NCBI GenBank assembly: GCA_039091335.1
Contig: JAWCME010000002.1
Span: 8,735 to 72,734, forward strand
DNA: 64,000 bases
Direction: 5' to 3'
From: Candidatus Aenigmatarchaeota archaeon
GTDB lineage: Archaea; Aenigmatarchaeota; Aenigmatarchaeia; CG10238-14; SCSR01
Positions 16,879-63,540 of this stretch are shown here, in pieces. Positions within the stretch are counted from its first letter, which is position 1; the number at the start of each line of letters is the position of its first letter. The notes beneath the pieces were generated by a model, which was not told where the DNA came from, made no database searches, and worked only from the letters and a program-made list of their open reading frames with translations. A program made the position numbers and the translations under genes.

Positions 16879-18511
16879 AGTTAAGTAAGGCCTCCAAATC
16901 AATCTCAAAGCATGATACGGGCATTTCAATTTTCCAGTTTTCTATAACCTCTGGATGGATTTCACCAAACATTCCAACTTCTTTTCCGTTGATTTTAACT
17001 AGGCAGCATCTTCCATCAATAAAAGAGGGATGGGAAAATTCTTCAATATTAAAATTAAGACCCAAACTTTTAATCAAGCTTTCAACCACTCCCTTTACTT
17101 CAGAGAAACTTGATTTGGAATGACAAATCGTACATCCAACCTTTCTTATAGTTTTTGTTAGTACCTCCTCGTTTTCGTCCATAACAACAACATCGCCAAT
17201 TTCAAATATGTTTTGAGGATATTCCACATGCTTGTTCAAAGACAATACTTTTAAAAGGCTTGGTATTATCCAAACTCTAAGGCAATTATACTCTTCAGAT
17301 ACAGGGTTTTCTATTTCTATTGCCTCTCCTTTTAACCTCATCTTATCGAATTGGTCAAAAAAATTTGTGAGAGTTGGTCTTAGAACTTCAATGAAACCAA
17401 AACCAACCATAAGATTCCTAATTTTTTCACAAAAATTTTCAAGCGGTAGGTCAAGTCCAACAGTTGCCAAGTTTGGCATTTCTGGTATCAAGTTATTATA
17501 ACCATAAGCTATTGCCACATCTTCTACTATATCAACAGAATGAAGTATGTCATTCCTATAACAAGGAATTATTACGTTTATCTTCTTTCCTTTCTTCTCA
17601 ATAGTTCCATATCCCATTCTTTCTAAAAGCATGCAAATTTCTTTTTTGCTCAAATTCAAACCTATTAACTTATTCACAAAATCAGTATCAATCTCCATGT
17701 TTTCCTCTTCCAATACTGGTGTTTTTTCAGCTTTCTTTCCGTACTTTACCTTTACAGCTTCAACTCTACATCCCCTATCAATCAAGTTAGTAACCAATAT
17801 GTTTAGGGTTTGAAGAGTTGACTTCTTCTCGGTTCCTGTTACTTCAACAAACATAGATTTCGTCCCTTCTTTTATTCTTGTGCGCTCAGAATTTAATATC
17901 GGTGGAAAACTGAATATTCCCTTAGAATCGACATATACAGGGAATTCCCCAGAAAGAACATGAGCAAATTCAATTCCTTTTTGGGTGTTTGTTAGCACTT
18001 CCTTCAGGCTCATTTCCTTTTTTTCCCCAAGAGGTAAAAATTTTGCTTCTGGGCTTGCGGTTTTGTAGGAGATTGGTGGTTCTATCTTTTCAAGGTCATG
18101 AATTCCGATAGCAACCCTTTTCCTATTTCTTCCAATAGTTTCATGCAATGCTTCTTGTATGTTCATAAGGCTTCTTATTAGTTCATCACTAAGCTTCACA
18201 TTCTTAACTATGGCACATGCAATATATGGCCTACTTTTAACTTCCCCAACCATCACCTCTGTTTTTGCCTCCTCTACATGGTATTTTACTAATCCTGTTT
18301 CAATCCCTAAGAAATACCTTATTGCTCTTGCCAGTCCTTCTATTCCAAAAAGGTCTGCTCTGTCGGGTGTTAGTTCAACTGTTATTTCATTTTTCTCAAT
18401 TTTTTCTACATTAAGTTTTATCATATTTATAGCTTCTTCTATCTCTTTTTCTGTTATGTCCTTTCCTATTAGCTTGATCAAATCTTTTTTATCATAAGTT
18501 AGTGTTGGCAC
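16868..18511 (-). CDS. pheT: phenylalanyl-tRNA synthetase beta subunit
   Basis: Archaeal PheT pattern. A GTG at 18511-18509 gives the typical MPTLTYDK N-terminus and overlaps the pheS TAG stop by 1 nt (TAGTG). The track start TTG 18541 lies inside pheS. Confidence 0.9.
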   Translation of the reverse strand: MPTLTYDKKDLIKLIGKDITEKEIEEAINMIKLNVEKIEKNEITVELTPDRADLFGIEGLARAIRYFLGIETGLVKYHVEEAKTEVMVGEVKSRPYIACAIVKNVKLSDELIRSLMNIQEALHETIGRNRKRVAIGIHDLEKIEPPISYKTASPEAKFLPLGEKKEMSLKEVLTNTQKGIEFAHVLSGEFPVYVDSKGIFSFPPILNSERTRIKEGTKSMFVEVTGTEKKSTLQTLNILVTNLIDRGCRVEAVKVKYGKKAEKTPVLEEENMEIDTDFVNKLIGLNLSKKEICMLLERMGYGTIEKKGKKINVIIPCYRNDILHSVDIVEDVAIAYGYNNLIPEMPNLATVGLDLPLENFCEKIRNLMVGFGFIEVLRPTLTNFFDQFDKMRLKGEAIEIENPVSEEYNCLRVWIIPSLLKVLSLNKHVEYPQNIFEIGDVVVMDENEEVLTKTIRKVGCTICHSKSSFSEVKGVVESLIKSLGLNFNIEEFSHPSFIDGRCCLVKINGKEVGMFGEIHPEVIENWKIEMPVSCFEIDLEALLNFIR

Positions 18512-20019
18512 TATATCACCAGTTCTTTGTTTCTTAACCAATTCAAGTCGTCTGAATAAAGATACCTTATATCCTCAACACCAAGCCTAACCATTGCCAT
18601 CCTACCAATACCAAGTCCCCATGCTAAAACTGGTACTTCTATTCCAAGAGGAACTGTTACTTCTGGCCTAAAAATACCAGCACCACCAAACTCGAACCAA
18701 CCAAGCTTAGGATGATAAGCTATACCTTCTACACTCGGTTCTGTAAATGGGAAGAAGGATGGCTTAAACCTAACTTTTTCTACTTCCATAATAGCTACTG
18801 CTATTTCCTTAAGGAAGCCCAAAAGGTTCCTTAAGTTTAAGTCTTCTCCCACAACTATACCTTCGCAATGTTCAAACTCTATGAAGTGCTTAGCATCTAT
18901 CACATCTGGCCTGAATACTCTATCTATCATAAACATTTTATGAGGCAGTTTCTTTCCTTTTAACGAATAAAGTGTTCTTGAAGATACAGCGGTTCCATGA
19001 CTTCTTAGTATAAGTCTTCTTGCAAGATCAAAGTCCCAGTTTCCCCAGCCTTTACTTCCTGTTATCCATCCATTTTTGTGTGTTTCTTCAACCCTCTCCC
19101 ACAACTCTTTATCCAGAACTTTCCCAAATTTTATGTTTTTGACAGTATATATGTCGTGAACACTTCTAGCAGGATGGTCAGACGGCATAAATAAGGCATC
19201 ACAATTCCAAAAATTTAGCTCAACAAAAGGTCCTCTTGCTTCCACAAAACCAAGACCAATAAGTCTTTTCCTTATTTTGTCTATGATTTGTCTGTACGGA
19301 TGAATTTTTCCAGGATAAATTTTTGGTGCGGGAAGGAAAACGTCATACTTTCTAATCTTTTTATTTTTCCACTCTCCAGTTTTGATAATTTCTGGAGTAA
19401 GTTGACCAATTTCTTCAACTACTTCCTTTAACTTTTCAGACAAGCTTTTTCCAAGCTCGGAAAGAAAGAAGTTCCTTTCTACTTCAACTACTTTTTTAAT
19501 TATTCCCCTTTTGATAAAATCTTCAACAAGCCCTATATTTTCTACCTCTTCTATTCTATGCCTTCCTACCATCAATCTTTTGATCAATTCTTCTCCTTCT
19601 GTAATCATTCTTACTGCTTTTTCCCCAGCATCCGTTAAAAAAATTTTTCCTTCCTTTATCTCAATCCATCCGTTCTTCCTTGCCCAAATTATTCCTATCT
19701 CAGCCCTTTCAATCTTGTCTTTAATTTTCGAAATTTCATTTATTCCAGAATCTATTGCTTGAATAAGATTTTTTTCTGGAAGTCCATACCTTACATATTC
19801 TATTCCCTCTTCTGTCAATTCTAGGAATTCAAACTTAATTTCTTCTGTTTCCAAAATACCTTTAGCTCTTGCCCAAAGACATGCTCTTTCTATTTCATCC
19901 TTTTTAAGTCCGCTCTCTTTGGATATTTCTTCGACCCCCGTCTTTCCTAAAACCATTAAAGCCCTTACTACCTTTTTCTCGTTTTCATGCAGTTTTTCTA
20001 TCAATTCTTCAACTCCCAT
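18511..20019 (-). CDS. pheS: phenylalanyl-tRNA synthetase alpha subunit
   Basis: Class II motifs: HPARS, FRPDVIDAKHFIEFEHCEG, FPFTEPS, GAGIFRPEV. Confidence 0.93.
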   Translation of the reverse strand: MGVEELIEKLHENEKKVVRALMVLGKTGVEEISKESGLKKDEIERACLWARAKGILETEEIKFEFLELTEEGIEYVRYGLPEKNLIQAIDSGINEISKIKDKIERAEIGIIWARKNGWIEIKEGKIFLTDAGEKAVRMITEGEELIKRLMVGRHRIEEVENIGLVEDFIKRGIIKKVVEVERNFFLSELGKSLSEKLKEVVEEIGQLTPEIIKTGEWKNKKIRKYDVFLPAPKIYPGKIHPYRQIIDKIRKRLIGLGFVEARGPFVELNFWNCDALFMPSDHPARSVHDIYTVKNIKFGKVLDKELWERVEETHKNGWITGSKGWGNWDFDLARRLILRSHGTAVSSRTLYSLKGKKLPHKMFMIDRVFRPDVIDAKHFIEFEHCEGIVVGEDLNLRNLLGFLKEIAVAIMEVEKVRFKPSFFPFTEPSVEGIAYHPKLGWFEFGGAGIFRPEVTVPLGIEVPVLAWGLGIGRMAMVRLGVEDIRYLYSDDLNWLRNKELVI

Positions 20020-44064: not shown

Positions 44065-45234
44065 ATGAGGATAGCTATATTTTCCTGGGAGTCTTTACAC
44101 TCGATTTCTGTTGGTGGGTTGGCACTTCATGTTACAGAGCTTGCAGCTGCATTGGAGAGAAAGGGGAACGAAGTTCATGTTTTTACTAGAATAGCACCTA
44201 ATCAAAAGCTCTACGAAGTTATAGATGATGTACATTATCATAGATGTCCTTTCGGTTTTAACTCAGACTTGATACAAGAGATGAATAACATGAGTAGATC
44301 AATGGCACATTTCTTTTTTGAAACAGAAAATGTGGCAGGAAATTTTGACATAATTCATGGCCATGATTGGCATGTAGTAAACGCGTTGGACGAAATTAAA
44401 AAAACTAGGAACAAAAAAATAATTTTTACTCTCCATTCAAACCAATTTGGAAGAGATGGAAATCACTTTCACGACGGGACTGCAAGAACAATAACAAACA
44501 TAGAGTGGTACGGAACATATATTGCTGATAGAATAATAGTTTGTTCTTATGCGATGAAAGAAGAGACAAAGTGGTTACACCGTGTCCCAGAAGAAAAAAT
44601 AAGGGTAATTCCAAACGGAATTTGGGTAAGGGATTTTGATGGTTTTATAGACCCATGGAAGGATGCAAAAGCAAAGTATGGAATTGGTCCCCTAGACCCC
44701 CTAGTTCTTTTTGTCGGAAGGATGACTTACCAGAAGGGTGTAGATTTTCTTTTAGAAGCTATACCAGATGTTTTAAAAGACTATCCACAGGCAAAATTTG
44801 TTTTTGTTGGAGATGGTTATATGAAAAACCAGCTTGAAAATAGGGCAAAAGAATTAAGGATAAGTCATGCAGTAAGGTTTACTGGTTATATTTCAAACGA
44901 GGAAAAAACAAATCTGATGAAAGCAAGCGAATGTATTGTAGTTCCAAGTAGGAATGAACCGTTTGGAATTGTTGTATTAGAGGCATGGGCATGTGGCAAG
45001 CCGGTAATCTCTACTCATGGCACAGGAGCAGGAGAAATTATTTGGCACGAAGTTACAGGACTAAAAGTCTACCAAAACCCTAACTCTATAGCATGGGGGA
45101 TAAAATATATTCTATCAAATCCAGAAAAAGCAAGGTGGATGGGTAGTAATGGTAGATTTGCTGCCGAAAATGTTTTTAATTGGGATAAAGTTGCTGAACA
45201 AACCATAGAAGTTTATAAGGAGGTATTGAGATGA
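44065..45234 (+). CDS. group 1 glycosyltransferase, archaeal glycogen-synthase-like
   Basis: MRIAIFSWESLHSISVGGLALHV N-terminus and EPFGIVVLEA motif. Confidence 0.8.
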   Translation: MRIAIFSWESLHSISVGGLALHVTELAAALERKGNEVHVFTRIAPNQKLYEVIDDVHYHRCPFGFNSDLIQEMNNMSRSMAHFFFETENVAGNFDIIHGHDWHVVNALDEIKKTRNKKIIFTLHSNQFGRDGNHFHDGTARTITNIEWYGTYIADRIIVCSYAMKEETKWLHRVPEEKIRVIPNGIWVRDFDGFIDPWKDAKAKYGIGPLDPLVLFVGRMTYQKGVDFLLEAIPDVLKDYPQAKFVFVGDGYMKNQLENRAKELRISHAVRFTGYISNEEKTNLMKASECIVVPSRNEPFGIVVLEAWACGKPVISTHGTGAGEIIWHEVTGLKVYQNPNSIAWGIKYILSNPEKARWMGSNGRFAAENVFNWDKVAEQTIEVYKEVLR

Positions 45235-54999: not shown

Positions 55000-55739
55000 T
55001 CACTTAATTTTTTCCGTCTCTTCTCTACTTAACTTTCTAAATTTTCCATCCTTTTCTATTATTGCAATATCTATACTCTCTTCTTTTCCAATTTTTTCTG
55101 ATTTTGATAGAATATCAATTGCAAGTCTTATTGCTTCCTTTCTGTCCATTCCCTCCCTCCATTTCTGTCTCAATGTTTTGTTTGCTAGCGTCCCACCCCT
55201 TCCTATGCCGTATGCCTTCCACTCATAAAGCATACCAGAAGGATCTGATTCTATTAGATGCGCTCCAGTTTTGTCAACACCTCCAATAAGAATGGTTGTT
55301 CCAAAGGGTCTTAGTCCTGCATATAATGTGGAGAGTTGCATTCTATCACCTATTGCCCTTGCAATACCCCAAACATCTATAGGTTCTTCATAGGTTATTT
55401 TATGTACTTGTGCCTTTATTCTTGCTTGGTTTATCAAAACCCTAGCATCAGCTAACAACCCAGCTGAGACAGAACCTATGTGTTCATCTATCTGGAATAT
55501 CTTCTCCACGGATTCTGAAACGATTAATGTGCCTGTTGGCTTTATTGTTGCAAGTAGCACACCGTCCTTAAAGATAATTCCAAGGCAAGTTGTTCCTCTT
55601 TTGACAGCTTCTTTTGCATATTCTACTTGAAATAGTCTTCCGTCTGGGGAGAAGACAGCAATTGTTCTATCATAACCCATATGAGCAACCTTCAGCTATT
55701 AGCTGAAGGTTAATACTCTGGAAGTATTTGTGGTGGCAT
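55000..55739 (-). CDS. psmA: proteasome alpha subunit, with a 9-codon first exon and a 32-nt intron
   Basis: Exon 2 (55680-55000) is the track ORF, MGYDRTIAVFSPDGRLFQVEYA.... Exon 1 (55739-55713) is ATG CCA CCA CAA ATA CTT CCA GAG TAT, preceded by SD GAGGTGAT. The spliced product begins MPPQILPEYMGYDR.... Confidence 0.85.
55681..55712 (-). other. BHB-type intron in the psmA pre-mRNA
   Basis: On the minus strand: central helix GAGT(55718-15)/GCTC(55686-83), bulges ATT(55714-12) and ATA(55682-80), 10-12 bp inner palindrome, 4-bp outer helix. Confidence 0.75.
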
Positions 55740-55744
55740 TATTC

Positions 55745-55752
55745 ATCACCTC
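55745..55752 (-). promoter_or_regulatory. Shine-Dalgarno element for psmA exon 1
   Basis: GAGGTGAT lies 5 nt upstream of ATG 55739. The same GGTGAT-type element precedes rps6e and other genes here. Confidence 0.5.
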
Positions 55753-55815
55753 ATTTTTCTCCTAATCATAATAATCAATTTATTTTTATTAGTTTTTCAT
55801 GTTTTAAAATGTATG

Positions 55816-56154
55816 CTATAAACCCAAGGATTTTATTGTTCCAGATACTTTTAATATTTTAAAAATTACCCTTGAGTCTCCTAGTCTTGAGATAAGACCT
55901 AAACAAGAAATAACTTTTTGCACAGATTTGTTATTGCACTTTATTACTCCAACTTGTTCTTTTTCCTTATACAAATTCTTTATTATCCACAAAGAAGTTT
56001 GAGAAAAGCCATGCTCTCCAAAAAACTCTAAGCAGGAATTAATTATTGCGTGTTCTAAATCAGAATAGACTATTGGTTCTTCGGAAATAACCTTAAATTT
56101 TATGTATCTTTCTTTTTCCCTTAGCGTGGGCAACAAATTCTTTAGTTTTTTCAT
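55816..56154 (-). CDS. rnp2: RNase P protein component Pop5 (Rnp2)
   Basis: LPTLREKERYIKFKVISE pattern. Confidence 0.8.
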   Translation of the reverse strand: MKKLKNLLPTLREKERYIKFKVISEEPIVYSDLEHAIINSCLEFFGEHGFSQTSLWIIKNLYKEKEQVGVIKCNNKSVQKVISCLGLISRLGDSRVIFKILKVSGTIKSLGL

Positions 56155-56579
56155 TTTTTTCTCCTCATAATATCTATCAAAATTTTTCTATGGTCAAAAC
56201 CGAGATTTAGTTTTAAAGCCTCTTTTATTGGAAAAAAATCAACTTCTTCTGCTTCTCTTCTCGCTTTAACTCTATTTCCTATGGGTTTACAAAAGTATGC
56301 AATAGATATAACATGTCCTCTTGGGTCACGATTAGGAGAATCATAAATACCAATTAAATCCAGAATTTTTACTTCAAGTCCAGTTTCTTCTTTAACCTCT
56401 CTTATGCATGCCTCTTTTGTTTTTTCCCCAGGAATAACAAATCCTCCCGGAAGCGCATAACTCCCTTTAAACGGTTGTGTTTTTCTTTTCAATAAAAGCA
56501 CTCTTCCTCTATGAATAACAACAGCATCTACAGCCACAGGCACGGTTGGTCTTGTTACTTTTATTGCAGACATTCTCAT
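56151..56579 (-). CDS. NUDIX hydrolase
   Basis: Nudix box GGFVIPGEKTKEACIREVKEETGL. Start set to the ATG at 56579, which makes an ATGA overlap with the rnp3 stop. Confidence 0.85.
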   Translation of the reverse strand: MRMSAIKVTRPTVPVAVDAVVIHRGRVLLLKRKTQPFKGSYALPGGFVIPGEKTKEACIREVKEETGLEVKILDLIGIYDSPNRDPRGHVISIAYFCKPIGNRVKARREAEEVDFFPIKEALKLNLGFDHRKILIDIMRRKK

Positions 56580-57292
56580 CTCACTATCTTTACTCCAGGC
56601 ATAATCCATTTTTCATCCTTCCTCTCTTCAATCATCTTAATAATATTACTTGGAATATTTGTTATTGCATCCTTTGCTTCTTTATATTCTAGGCCAAGCT
56701 GACAAGCCATTGATACCAAGCATTCTGGGGCCCTAAGTTCCCAGCAAGATATTGCACCAGAGCAAAGTATTATTTTTGCACCAAACTTTTTTGCTAAAAA
56801 AACATTCTGTGCAATATTTTTTAATACGATACTCCTATTCCTTTTTGTAGATAGAAGAATTTCTCTAAAGTTTATTTCTATTGCTACATTATTCTCTGCA
56901 GCCAGTCTTACTGAAACATGGTCAAGCCCGGAATCATTTCTATTGTATTCGGGATGTGTCAAAATATCAACTTCTGGCGTCCCACACGCCTTTCTGTTTA
57001 AATTTAAATCCCCTCCTCTTGCCAGTAGAATATCAAACTCTCTTCTTCTATTTGCTAATTGTATCAATTCCTTTATGTTTCTGGCTTCAAAACCTAGTAG
57101 AATTTTTATTTTGGTTTTTTCTTCAACTCTTTTGATTTCAGCTTTTAATATTTCCTCCTCTTCCTTTCTAAGAGGATAAGAAGTAAAACAAATTCCACAA
57201 TATCCCAATTCTTTTGCCATGGACGCCAATTCTTCTAGGCTAGACTCACCACCTGAGAATGCACTATGTACATGTAAGTCATACGCCTTCAT
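56576..57292 (-). CDS. rnp3: RNase P protein component Rpp30 (Rnp3), PHP fold
   Basis: MKAYDLHVHS N-terminus and family length. Confidence 0.8.
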   Translation of the reverse strand: MKAYDLHVHSAFSGGESSLEELASMAKELGYCGICFTSYPLRKEEEEILKAEIKRVEEKTKIKILLGFEARNIKELIQLANRRREFDILLARGGDLNLNRKACGTPEVDILTHPEYNRNDSGLDHVSVRLAAENNVAIEINFREILLSTKRNRSIVLKNIAQNVFLAKKFGAKIILCSGAISCWELRAPECLVSMACQLGLEYKEAKDAITNIPSNIIKMIEERKDEKWIMPGVKIVR

Positions 57293-61769: not shown

Positions 61770-61926
61770 CTATATAGATTCAACCCTTTTTATTACTTCT
61801 GGTCTCGTTTTTGCCAAAATTCTATGGGCCCTGCTTGCTTTAAAGCAAGCAAGTAAACCCGCAATATGGACATCTAATGTTTTCTTCCACATTCACAATT
61901 TTCTTACATTTTACACACTTATACAT
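61770..61926 (-). CDS. rpoP: RNA polymerase subunit P (Rpo12/RpoP), interrupted by a 31-nt intron
   Basis: Exon 1 (61926-61855) encodes MYKCVKCKKIVNVEENIRCPYCGF. Exon 2 (61823-61770) encodes RILAKTRPEVIKRVESI*. Unspliced, the frame stops after CPYCGFTCLL. Lies between rpl37ae and pfdB and is absent from the track. Confidence 0.8.
61824..61854 (-). other. BHB-type intron in the rpoP pre-mRNA
   Basis: On the minus strand: central helix GGGT(61860-57)/GCCC(61829-26), bulges TTA(61856-54) and ATA(61825-23), 9-bp inner helix CTTGCTTGC/GCAAGCAGG with loop TTTAAA. Confidence 0.75.
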
Positions 61927-63392: not shown

Positions 63393-63472
63393 CTAATAAT
63401 AAATTGTTTTAAAATAAATTGAGTAAAGAATAAAAATGGGTCCGACCGGATTCGAACCGGTGACCTCCGCCG

Positions 63473-63484
63473 TTCTGATACATT
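63473..63484 (-). other. tRNA-Val intron 2 (canonical position 37/38)
   Basis: The 12 nt AATGTATCAGAA. Central helix CTGA/TCAG, bulges CGA and AAC. The anticodon stem forms the outer helix. Confidence 0.7.
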
Positions 63485-63492
63485 CGTCAGGG

Positions 63493-63505
63493 TTCCGCTC
63501 TCTCT
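63493..63505 (-). other. tRNA-Val intron 1 (position 29/30), relaxed BHB
   Basis: The 13 nt AGAGAGAGCGGAA. Central helix ACGT/GCGG has 3 pairs plus an A-G mismatch. Bulges CGA and AAC; 4-bp outer helix TAGG/CCTG. Confidence 0.55.
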
Positions 63506-63540
63506 CGACGTCCTACCACTAGACCACGGACCCAACTTTA

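Follow-up and report, generated by a model that had tools for sequence, protein, structure and literature searches.

The proteasome alpha subunit gene psmA of an uncultured Candidatus Aenigmatarchaeota archaeon lies within a 64,000-nucleotide stretch of contig JAWCME010000002.1 (hereafter the window; positions are counted from its first letter). The gene belongs to a minus-strand cluster with RNase P, proteasome and exosome character, comprising L15e, Rpp30, Nudix, Pop5, PsmA, SBDS, Rrp4 and Rrp41, and all psmA features are read on that strand. The annotated psmA open reading frame (ORF; 55680-55000) encodes 226 amino acids (aa) beginning MGYDRTIAVFSPDG and is 100% identical to P0001, an NCBI-annotated protein from a Candidatus Aenigmatarchaeota metagenome-assembled genome. 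The 135 nucleotides (nt) between pop5 and the annotated psmA ATG are intergenic by annotation. This gap contains a short exon led by a Shine-Dalgarno (SD) sequence and a hairpin-forming segment of 32 nt, which is very probably removed at the RNA level by the bulge-helix-bulge (BHB) pathway.

By definition, a BHB motif has a 4-bp helix between two 3-nt bulges on opposite strands and lies where exon meets intron (PMC5829648). At psmA the motif takes the strict hBHBh' form, with both flanking helices present: an outer helix of 4 bp (UCCA/UGGG), a central helix (GAGU/GCUC), and a palindromic inner helix of 10-11 bp (Table 1). The outer and central helices each consist of three Watson-Crick pairs and one G-U pair, and the last six nucleotides of exon 1 supply the 5' strand of the central helix together with two bulge nucleotides. 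An earlier description made from the letters alone (the sequence-only reading) had named the palindrome, the outer and central helices and the bulges, and all are present at the minus-strand positions it gave. It was equally correct about ATG 55739, its SD with a 5-nt spacer, the 3' splice site just before ATG 55680, and the in-frame TAA (55712-55710) that abuts the ninth codon of exon 1 when the intron stays in place. Its comparison of the two start sites held in part. The SD before ATG 55739 is the usual psmA SD of relatives, but ATG 55680, described as having none, is preceded 7 nt upstream by a weak SD-like AAGGU (55692-55688) in the 3' arm of the hairpin.

Folding agrees with this anatomy. 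Without constraints, the 55 nt from 55726 to 55672 reach a minimum free energy of -21.8 kcal/mol (z -4.6), which none of 200 shuffled sequences equals, and z-scores across folding runs range from -4.6 to -5.3. The centroid structure consists of exactly 3+4 bp and an 11-bp helix with a 3-nt bulge on either side. A looser version of the motif (4/4 central pairs, inner helix of at least 4 bp) was tried as evidence on 126 upstream regions of related loci and dropped as uninformative, with 861 candidates versus about 621 in shuffles.

Homologues place the exon junction at the same bonds. Among the 120 best PsmA matches, which share 70-79% identity apart from the self-match, most begin M..I[LM]PEYMGYDR, a start typical of Aenigmatarchaeota PsmA proteins. 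The sequence-only reading had proposed aligning ortholog N-termini as a check, and three contiguous homologues (P0038, P0063 and P0083) start exactly as the spliced product was predicted to. Their uninterrupted N-termini read MPPQILPEYMGYDRTIAVFSPDG, letter for letter the predicted start MPPQILPEYMGYDR. Homologues sharing the exon-1 amino acids are 72-76% identical overall. At the DNA level, alignment of the window with the intron-less loci L006, L133, L003 and L167 leaves a single clean gap, 32 nt long, in place of the predicted intron. Cutting after the second nucleotide of each bulge, a position that follows the 37/38 geometry of tRNA introns, gives a product equal to the contiguous homologues and matches this gap; the BHB cut sites are thus the junction that the homologues require. 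The predicted mRNA junction joins CCAGAGUAU to AUGGGUUAU (junction k-mer ATACTTCCAGAGTAT followed by ATGGGTTATGATAGAA), and the N-terminal peptide expected from spliced psmA is (M)PPQILPEYMGYDR, compared with (M)GYDR from the annotated start.

Two further comparisons concern the start of the protein. Related psmA loci as a rule have GGTGA[AT] 3-6 nt ahead of where the N-terminal tail starts, and the GGTGA before the mini-exon corresponds to it. The sequence-only reading also proposed that splicing gives back the normal tail length before the YDR motif, and this is borne out. Spliced PsmA has 11 residues ahead of YDR, versus 2 when unspliced, which is similar to solved archaeal alpha subunits, the closest solved structures to PsmA. 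In M. jannaschii 3H4P, YDR begins at approximately residue 11.

Insertions of this kind recur at several sites across the lineage. In 126 Aenigmatarchaeota-type psmA loci, the DNA was spliced-aligned to the conserved N-terminal peptide with a routine blind to RNA structure, and insertion positions were counted from the A of the conserved Met codon (site 0). Altogether, 42 insertions occur in 32 loci; they are 20-37 nt long, most of them 30-33 nt, and are distributed over sites -3 (2), -2 (5), 0 (12, including the window), +19 (13), +20 (1), +26 (1), +28 (6) and +56 (2). The maximum is three insertions per gene (L037, L045 and L125), and the micro-exons between them are as short as 8-9 nt (L042 and L037). 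Read-through meets an in-frame stop in all 42, and the length is not a multiple of three in 29. Where the insertion lies at -3, -2 or 0, the upstream start codon and SD are preserved in 19 of 19 loci. The insertions are confined to the first ~60 nt of a coding sequence (CDS) of ~700 nt; past the EYAKE motif, 126 of 126 genes run uninterrupted for at least 150 codons. Because sites +19 to +56 break the invariant YDRTIAVFSPDGRLFQVEY core of PsmA, removal of these insertions from the RNA is predicted to be obligatory; otherwise the genomes concerned would be left without a functional alpha subunit.

The presence of psmA introns is very patchy on the PsmA tree. The window groups with the intron-less loci L133 and L003, and with L011 and L165, which carry an intron at -2 and not at 0. 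Such a distribution suggests repeated gain, loss or sliding of introns. Same-site introns of different genomes are somewhat more alike than different-site introns. Different-site introns of one genome are no more alike than those of different genomes (Mann-Whitney p = 0.29), and recent intragenomic transposition, and with it mobility, is therefore unsupported in this comparison.

The junctions defined by protein alignment fall into BHB register. In the register test, the central helix and the two 3-nt bulges were placed so that cleavage follows the second nucleotide of each bulge. The junction lies in exact register with 4/4 central pairs in 34 of 42 insertions, with 3/4 in seven and 2/4 in one; among the 41 distinct insertion sequences, 33 have 4/4 pairs and the mean is 3.78. 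When either strand is shifted by 1-3 nt off the helix diagonal, the mean is 0.5-2.0 pairs. As a negative control, 40 spurious "insertions" were forced in outgroup loci of Methanobacteria and Thermoplasmata; two reached 4/4 pairs, and none had an inner helix of at least 4 bp. Most site-0 sequences fold into the BHB shape unaided. The -2/-3 group is weaker and resembles relaxed HBh' forms, and several relatives show an outer helix that is weak or absent, again HBh'-like.

The central helix shows covariation between its exon strand and its intron strand. At site 0, without exception, the Glu codon GAG occurs with intron GCUC or ACUC (7 loci) and the synonymous GAA with GUUC or AUUC (5 loci), so that GAGU pairs with the former two and GAAU with the latter two. 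At site +19, where the Arg codon is AGG, AGA, CGC or CGU, one pair appears in all four Watson-Crick states (GGAC:GUCC, GAAC:GUUC, GCAC:GUGC and GUAC:GUAA). Site +28 shows CCGU with ACGG or GCGG versus CCAU with AUGG. A MAFFT alignment of all introns lost the structural register, and the full set was analysed with anchored coordinates instead. For pair counts and covariance model (CM) training, alignment A3 was used, in which MAFFT kept 17 introns in structural register. In these, 91.3% of cells are paired; column shuffles give 65.9%, with the observed value attained in 0 of 500, and sliding the partners gives 32-43%. Both sides vary in 11 of the 13 pairs, and inner-helix pairs are kept by compensatory changes.

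A second gene in the window carries the same type of insertion. The CM built from A3 was run over the whole window with no filters and returned the psmA intron (42.2 bits) and one other significant match, 61860-61823 on the minus strand (26.4 bits, E 0.002). The latter falls in rpoP, which encodes RNA polymerase subunit P (Rpo12) and is present as a small ORF after rpl37ae. Its unspliced reading, MYKCVKCKKIVNVEENIRCPYCGF-TCLL-stop, ends CPYCGF-TCLL-stop. Removal of 61854-61824 at the BHB-predicted bonds yields ...CPYCGF-RILAKTRPEVIKRVESI, with TGCGGGTTT joined to AGAATTTTGGC. The spliced product passes the PF03604 threshold (RNA polymerase 7-kDa subunit; 27.8 vs 24 bits), whereas the unspliced one has no match to the family. 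A contiguous 42-aa homologue (P0121) spans the junction, and its intron-less locus (L171), which has the same S19e, L37ae, rpoP and prefoldin neighbourhood, displays a clean 31-nt gap. With default filters, the CM recovered only its training sequences and one more psmA intron from 560 kb of related loci, and none in neighbouring genes.

The window also holds a tRNA gene with an intron located outside the canonical 37/38 position. ARAGORN models of this gene conflict, giving Pro(CGG) in one mode and, in another, Leu(CAG) with the intron after position 29. By prediction, the organism has at least two mRNA introns of this type within 6 kb, plus the intron-containing tRNA gene. Intron loops across sites and genomes often share an element resembling AG-UUAAU-(N)GCU; the window has CAGCUAAUAGCUG at 55694-55704 and the rpoP intron has UUUAAAG. 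The element may be a recognition signal, serve as a stop-codon device or reflect common ancestry.

Table 1. Features of the psmA and rpoP introns and of the intron-bearing tRNA gene in the window. A slash within a bulge marks the predicted cut.
Feature	Coordinates	Strand	Evidence
Shine-Dalgarno sequence GAGGTGAT	55745..55752	-	5-nt spacer to exon-1 ATG; read from sequence
psmA exon 1, 27 nt, ATG CCA CCA CAA ATA CTT CCA GAG TAT (MPPQILPEY)	55713..55739	-	Identical to residues 1-9 of contiguous P0038, P0063 and P0083
psmA predicted BHB intron, 32 nt, UAACCUUCAGCUAAUAGCUGAAGGUUGCUCAU	55681..55712	-	Spliced alignment; BHB register test; 32-nt gap in relatives; CM 42.2 bits
psmA outer helix h, 5' strand UCCA	55719..55722	-	Pairs with 55676-55679; sequence and folding
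psmA outer helix h, 3' strand UGGG (UG of AUG and GG of the Gly codon)	55676..55679	-	Sequence and folding
psmA central 4-bp helix H, exon strand GAGU	55715..55718	-	Folding; register test; covariation
psmA central 4-bp helix H, intron strand GCUC	55683..55686	-	Folding; register test; covariation
psmA 5' bulge AU/U, predicted cut between 55713 and 55712	55712..55714	-	Fold geometry; cut position agrees with homologue junction
psmA 3' bulge AU/A, predicted cut between 55681 and 55680	55680..55682	-	Fold geometry; 32-nt gap in intron-less DNA
psmA inner helix h', perfect 25-nt palindrome AACCTTCAGCTAATAGCTGAAGGTT	55687..55711	-	10-11 bp stem; UAAUA-type loop
psmA exon 2, MGYDRTIAVF... to stop	55000..55680	-	Equals 226-aa P0001; Pfam Proteasome_A_N and Proteasome domains
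rpoP predicted BHB intron, 31 nt, GGGU UU/A, 9-bp hairpin, GCCC AU/A	61824..61854	-	CM; Pfam; homologue; DNA gap
rpoP exon 1, MYKCVKCKKIVNVEENIRCPYCGF	61855..61926	-	Sequence; Pfam
rpoP exon 2, RILAKTRPEVIKRVESI and stop	61770..61823	-	Sequence; Pfam; homologue
tRNA gene with intron, 99 nt	63436..63534	-	ARAGORN; Rfam tRNA 50 bits; intron ~26 nt (ARAGORN)

The central claim of the sequence-only reading, that a 32-nt BHB intron parts an SD-led mini-exon from the psmA body, is therefore backed by the N-termini of homologues, the 32-nt DNA gap, 41 further insertions, the rpoP intron and the SD that matches the one in intron-less relatives. The following sequence of events is proposed. Transcription would begin upstream of 55752, and the pre-mRNA would fold so that exon GAGU pairs with intron GCUC, leaving two 3-nt bulges, closed by UCCA/UGGG on the outside and by the palindromic hairpin on the inside. 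The archaeal tRNA splicing endonuclease EndA would presumably cut after the second nucleotide of each bulge, between 55713 and 55712 and between 55681 and 55680. An RtcB-type ligase would join the exons, and the intron would probably leave as a 32-nt circle. Translation of the mature mRNA from the SD-led AUG 55739 would then produce a 235-aa alpha subunit with an MPPQILPEY-MGYDR start and a gate tail of normal length. On unspliced RNA, translation from the same AUG would end at the UAA right after codon 9. Because of its strict form, the window motif should be accepted by any EndA type; those reported for DPANN archaea are alpha4 with an extra loop, (alpha-beta)2 and epsilon2. The tRNA gene with an intron indicates that the genome needs a tRNA splicing endonuclease and a ligase.

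Several points weigh against this reading. All evidence for psmA splicing is drawn from DNA, and related sequences are not independent observations. Neither an EndA nor an RtcB gene is recognisable in the window, where a search of the ORFs for RtcB motifs gave no match. The chance rate of the motif is non-trivial: a scan of the window for strong motifs (4/4 central helix, outer helix of at least 3 bp, inner helix of at least 8 bp) found six versus 2.9 in composition-matched shuffles, with the psmA motif the strongest. Since six are seen where 2.9 are expected, BHB structure by itself is insufficient as evidence for the psmA intron, and it is position and register that lift the case above chance; of the window's other strong motifs, the four at 44439, 35726, 29104 and 14370 restore no reading frame. 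In addition, the central helix is imperfect in 8 of the 42 insertions, chiefly in those of the -2/-3 group, whose removal would call for an enzyme with tolerance of relaxed motifs. The 17 introns of A3 were pre-selected for a 4/4 central helix and register, which accounts in part for the 100% figure of that helix; the unbiased figures are those for the inner helix and the count of 34 in 42, for which no selection was made.

Among the alternatives, the one that survives best is a dual output, which the sequence-only reading had suggested. Here, spliced mRNA would give the tailed subunit, unspliced mRNA translated from AUG 55680 would give a tail-less alpha subunit with an open gate, and splicing would tune gating. 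In the archaeal 20S proteasome, deletion of the residues ahead of YDR does open the gate. AUG 55680 is in frame, the weak AAGGU lies upstream of it, and the site-0 intron directly precedes the conserved Met. However, all relatives conserve this Met, whether they have an intron or not, and the 3' part of other site-0 introns conserves no SD-like element. Folding of the pre-mRNA puts AAGGU, as well as the UG of the AUG, into base pairs. Introns at the +19 to +56 sites come after that Met and leave no usable unspliced product, which indicates that the intron family as a whole behaves as obligatorily spliced. The two-output proposal is consequently without support in these comparisons and is judged improbable.

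A second alternative keeps the hairpin in the mRNA, as a palindrome resembling a miniature inverted-repeat transposable element or as a regulatory hairpin, so that the protein starts at MGYDR and the nine-codon ORF would represent a leader peptide or a relic in decay. The public annotation (P0001) does start psmA at ATG 55680, a palindrome could bind a dimeric protein, and a two-codon upstream ORF (uORF) and other small ORFs occur in the region. Exon 1, however, is intact, with amino acids identical to those of homologues that share 72-76% identity overall, and its start codon and SD persist wherever an insertion sits at -3, -2 or 0. Neither a DNA palindrome nor an operator requires exon-intron covariation of the central helix, and equivalent insertions in the invariant psmA core and in rpoP would destroy these genes if retained. 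Retention of the hairpin is thus considered very unlikely.

Programmed translational bypassing, with take-off at UAU beside the UAA and the hairpin and landing 32 nt downstream, is even less probable. A stop follows the take-off codon immediately, a stable hairpin begins there, and every insertion contains an in-frame stop. Yet no matching landing codon exists in frame, as the only downstream UAU (55681-55679) continues out of frame into GGG UUA UGA. Neither the constant geometry, a 4-bp helix between two 3-nt bulges, nor the covariation of exon with intron is predicted by bypassing, and some insertions are separated only by the 8-9 nt micro-exons. Finally, an intrinsic terminator, attenuator or operator in the pop5-psmA region, unrelated to coding, would fit a hairpin within an annotated intergenic gap of a gene cluster, but it deserves almost no credence, given that the hairpin is not followed by a U-tract, that the conserved N-terminal tail is encoded in the "gap", and that the same hairpin type occurs inside the coding sequence of relatives.

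The predicted BHB splicing of psmA can be compared with known systems. The closest is the cbf5 intron (Watanabe et al. 2002; Yokobori et al. 2009, PMC2738675), which is likewise short, non-self-splicing, placed in coding sequence, bounded by a BHB motif and patchy among relatives through gain and loss. Its removal by the tRNA splicing endonuclease has been demonstrated experimentally, whereas the psmA case is known from DNA. The cbf5 intron is a single one, found in Crenarchaeota (TACK) and often relaxed, a feature linked by the authors to the hetero-oligomeric crenarchaeal enzyme (PMC2738675). Here, psmA and rpoP are the hosts, the lineage is DPANN Aenigmatarchaeota, and the window motif is strict hBHBh'. 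In contrast to cbf5, psmA has up to three introns per gene, eight alternative positions in ~60 nt and micro-exons of 8-9 nt, and in the window its first exon consists only of the SD-led start and nine codons. The psmA and rpoP introns are functional analogues of the cbf5 intron and not orthologues, as they reside in other genes.

Introns of pre-tRNA and pre-rRNA share the two 3-nt bulges and the 4-bp helix, and the enzymes are presumably the same; the psmA lengths of 20-37 nt lie within the archaeal tRNA-intron range of 11-175 nt (PMC2738675). In psmA, unlike in these RNAs, the intron sits in an mRNA, codons (Pro-Glu-Tyr and Met-Gly) make up the exon strands of the helices, the frame has to be restored to the nucleotide, and no tRNA body aids recognition. 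Yokobori et al. (2009) stated that splicing was confirmed for no archaeal protein-coding gene besides cbf5 (PMC2738675). Schwarz et al. (2020) described a 46-nt BHB intron in the 5' untranslated region (UTR) of Haloferax volcanii HVO_1309, with cbf5 then the only other mRNA case (PMC7714728). The HVO_1309 intron is an EndA substrate, as is proposed for the psmA intron, and both lie near the mRNA 5' end; the HVO_1309 intron sits wholly in the UTR and leaves coding uninterrupted, whereas the psmA intron separates the start codon from the protein body. Crenarchaeal cbf5 has been the one standard example of an archaeal coding-sequence BHB intron from 2002 onwards, and papers up to 2025 cite no other. 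A literature search found no report of psmA or rpoP introns, nor of mRNA introns in Aenigmatarchaeota or other DPANN archaea, although its journal coverage was partial and an earlier description is possible.

More distant parallels exist outside archaeal BHB splicing. In HAC1 and XBP1, Ire1 cuts a very short mRNA intron without the spliceosome, a tRNA ligase or RtcB joins the exons, and the protein made is changed. These systems differ from psmA in using Ire1, which recognises two 7-nt loops, and in being eukaryotic and stress-regulated. The bypassed segments of T4 gene 60 and the mitochondrial byps resemble the psmA insertions as short hairpin insertions in a CDS with a stop at the 5' edge. 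In those cases the ribosome skips between matched take-off and landing codons, whereas the psmA insertions have no such codons and show BHB geometry and covariation. Overall, the proposed mechanism is as for cbf5 and tRNA introns; what is new is the host genes, the lineage, and the multiple position-polymorphic micro-introns at the 5' end of a CDS.

Other observations concern the start of psmA and its neighbours. A tiny uORF, ATG AGG TGA (55746-55754, minus strand), has its own SD-like AGGAG at 55758-55762, and its stop lies inside the psmA SD GGTGAT. A uORF with its own SD is also present 5' of psmA exon 1 in L011, L012, L013, L037, L161, L163, L165, L168 and L169; in intron-bearing relatives the uORFs have 6-13 codons, end in ...GATGCCTGA and overlap the psmA start. 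These uORFs could serve translational coupling or regulation. Many intron-less relatives have ATT, ATC or ATA in place of ATG at the normal distance after the GGTGA SD, with the conserved tail in frame. ATT is found in L004, L005, L022, L029, L082, L084, L119, L162, L164 and L166, ATC in L167, L083 and L085, and ATA in L086 and L093. The SBDS gene starts with ATT in L168 (~1420) and ATC in L169 (~1565), and the apparent gaps once considered as introns before SBDS in these two loci are explained by those codons. From sequence context, these Aenigmatarchaeota seem to use AUU, AUC and AUA as start codons, which leads gene callers to shorten psmA and SBDS to the next Met. Through introns or AUU/AUC start codons, 22 of the 120 best homologues are annotated as starting at MGYDR.

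In the surrounding genes, a Nudix hydrolase gene (56151-56609, minus strand) lies between rpp30 and pop5 with a few-base overlap with both neighbours, and is also present in L164 (1-288). In L161 (1-574) and L169 (1-572), the gene 5' of psmA is not pop5; its 315-321-aa product gives faint LAGLIDADG matches and is possibly an intein-containing protein or a homing endonuclease. A scan of the window for BHB candidates fusing two long ORFs returned gene-boundary artefacts only. One of them, a motif at 18583 that would fuse the phenylalanyl-tRNA synthetase subunit ORFs, is judged a chance artefact, since the C-terminus of the first ORF is normal and the second begins VPTL; the two ORFs overlap by 31 nt (18511-18541, minus strand).

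Beyond excision itself, it is conceivable, although fairly unlikely, that these elements are turning-over and possibly mobile micro-introns with a preference for the first ~60 nt of psmA and for other small information-processing genes such as rpoP, and that their excision by EndA acts as a post-transcriptional switch, which for the site-0 intron of the window could be between tailed and tail-less subunits or simply between on and off. If the switch were real, tRNA-type splicing would regulate archaeal proteolysis, and the family would offer a living model of mRNA intron gain. At its small size, the strict hBHBh' motif found in the window is amenable to direct testing in vitro.

Gene callers shorten or break genes of this kind, and the window psmA itself is publicly annotated from MGYDR; proteome predictions for the phylum are thus likely to be systematically wrong at such sites. 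Should splicing take place as predicted, the range of mRNAs processed by the tRNA endonuclease would come to include DPANN archaea and two core genes, psmA for the proteasome alpha subunit and rpoP for subunit P of RNA polymerase. A single gene would then contain several introns, with micro-exons of 8-9 nt, and the intron positions that differ between close relatives would offer a natural setting in which to study how introns are gained and lost where no spliceosome exists.

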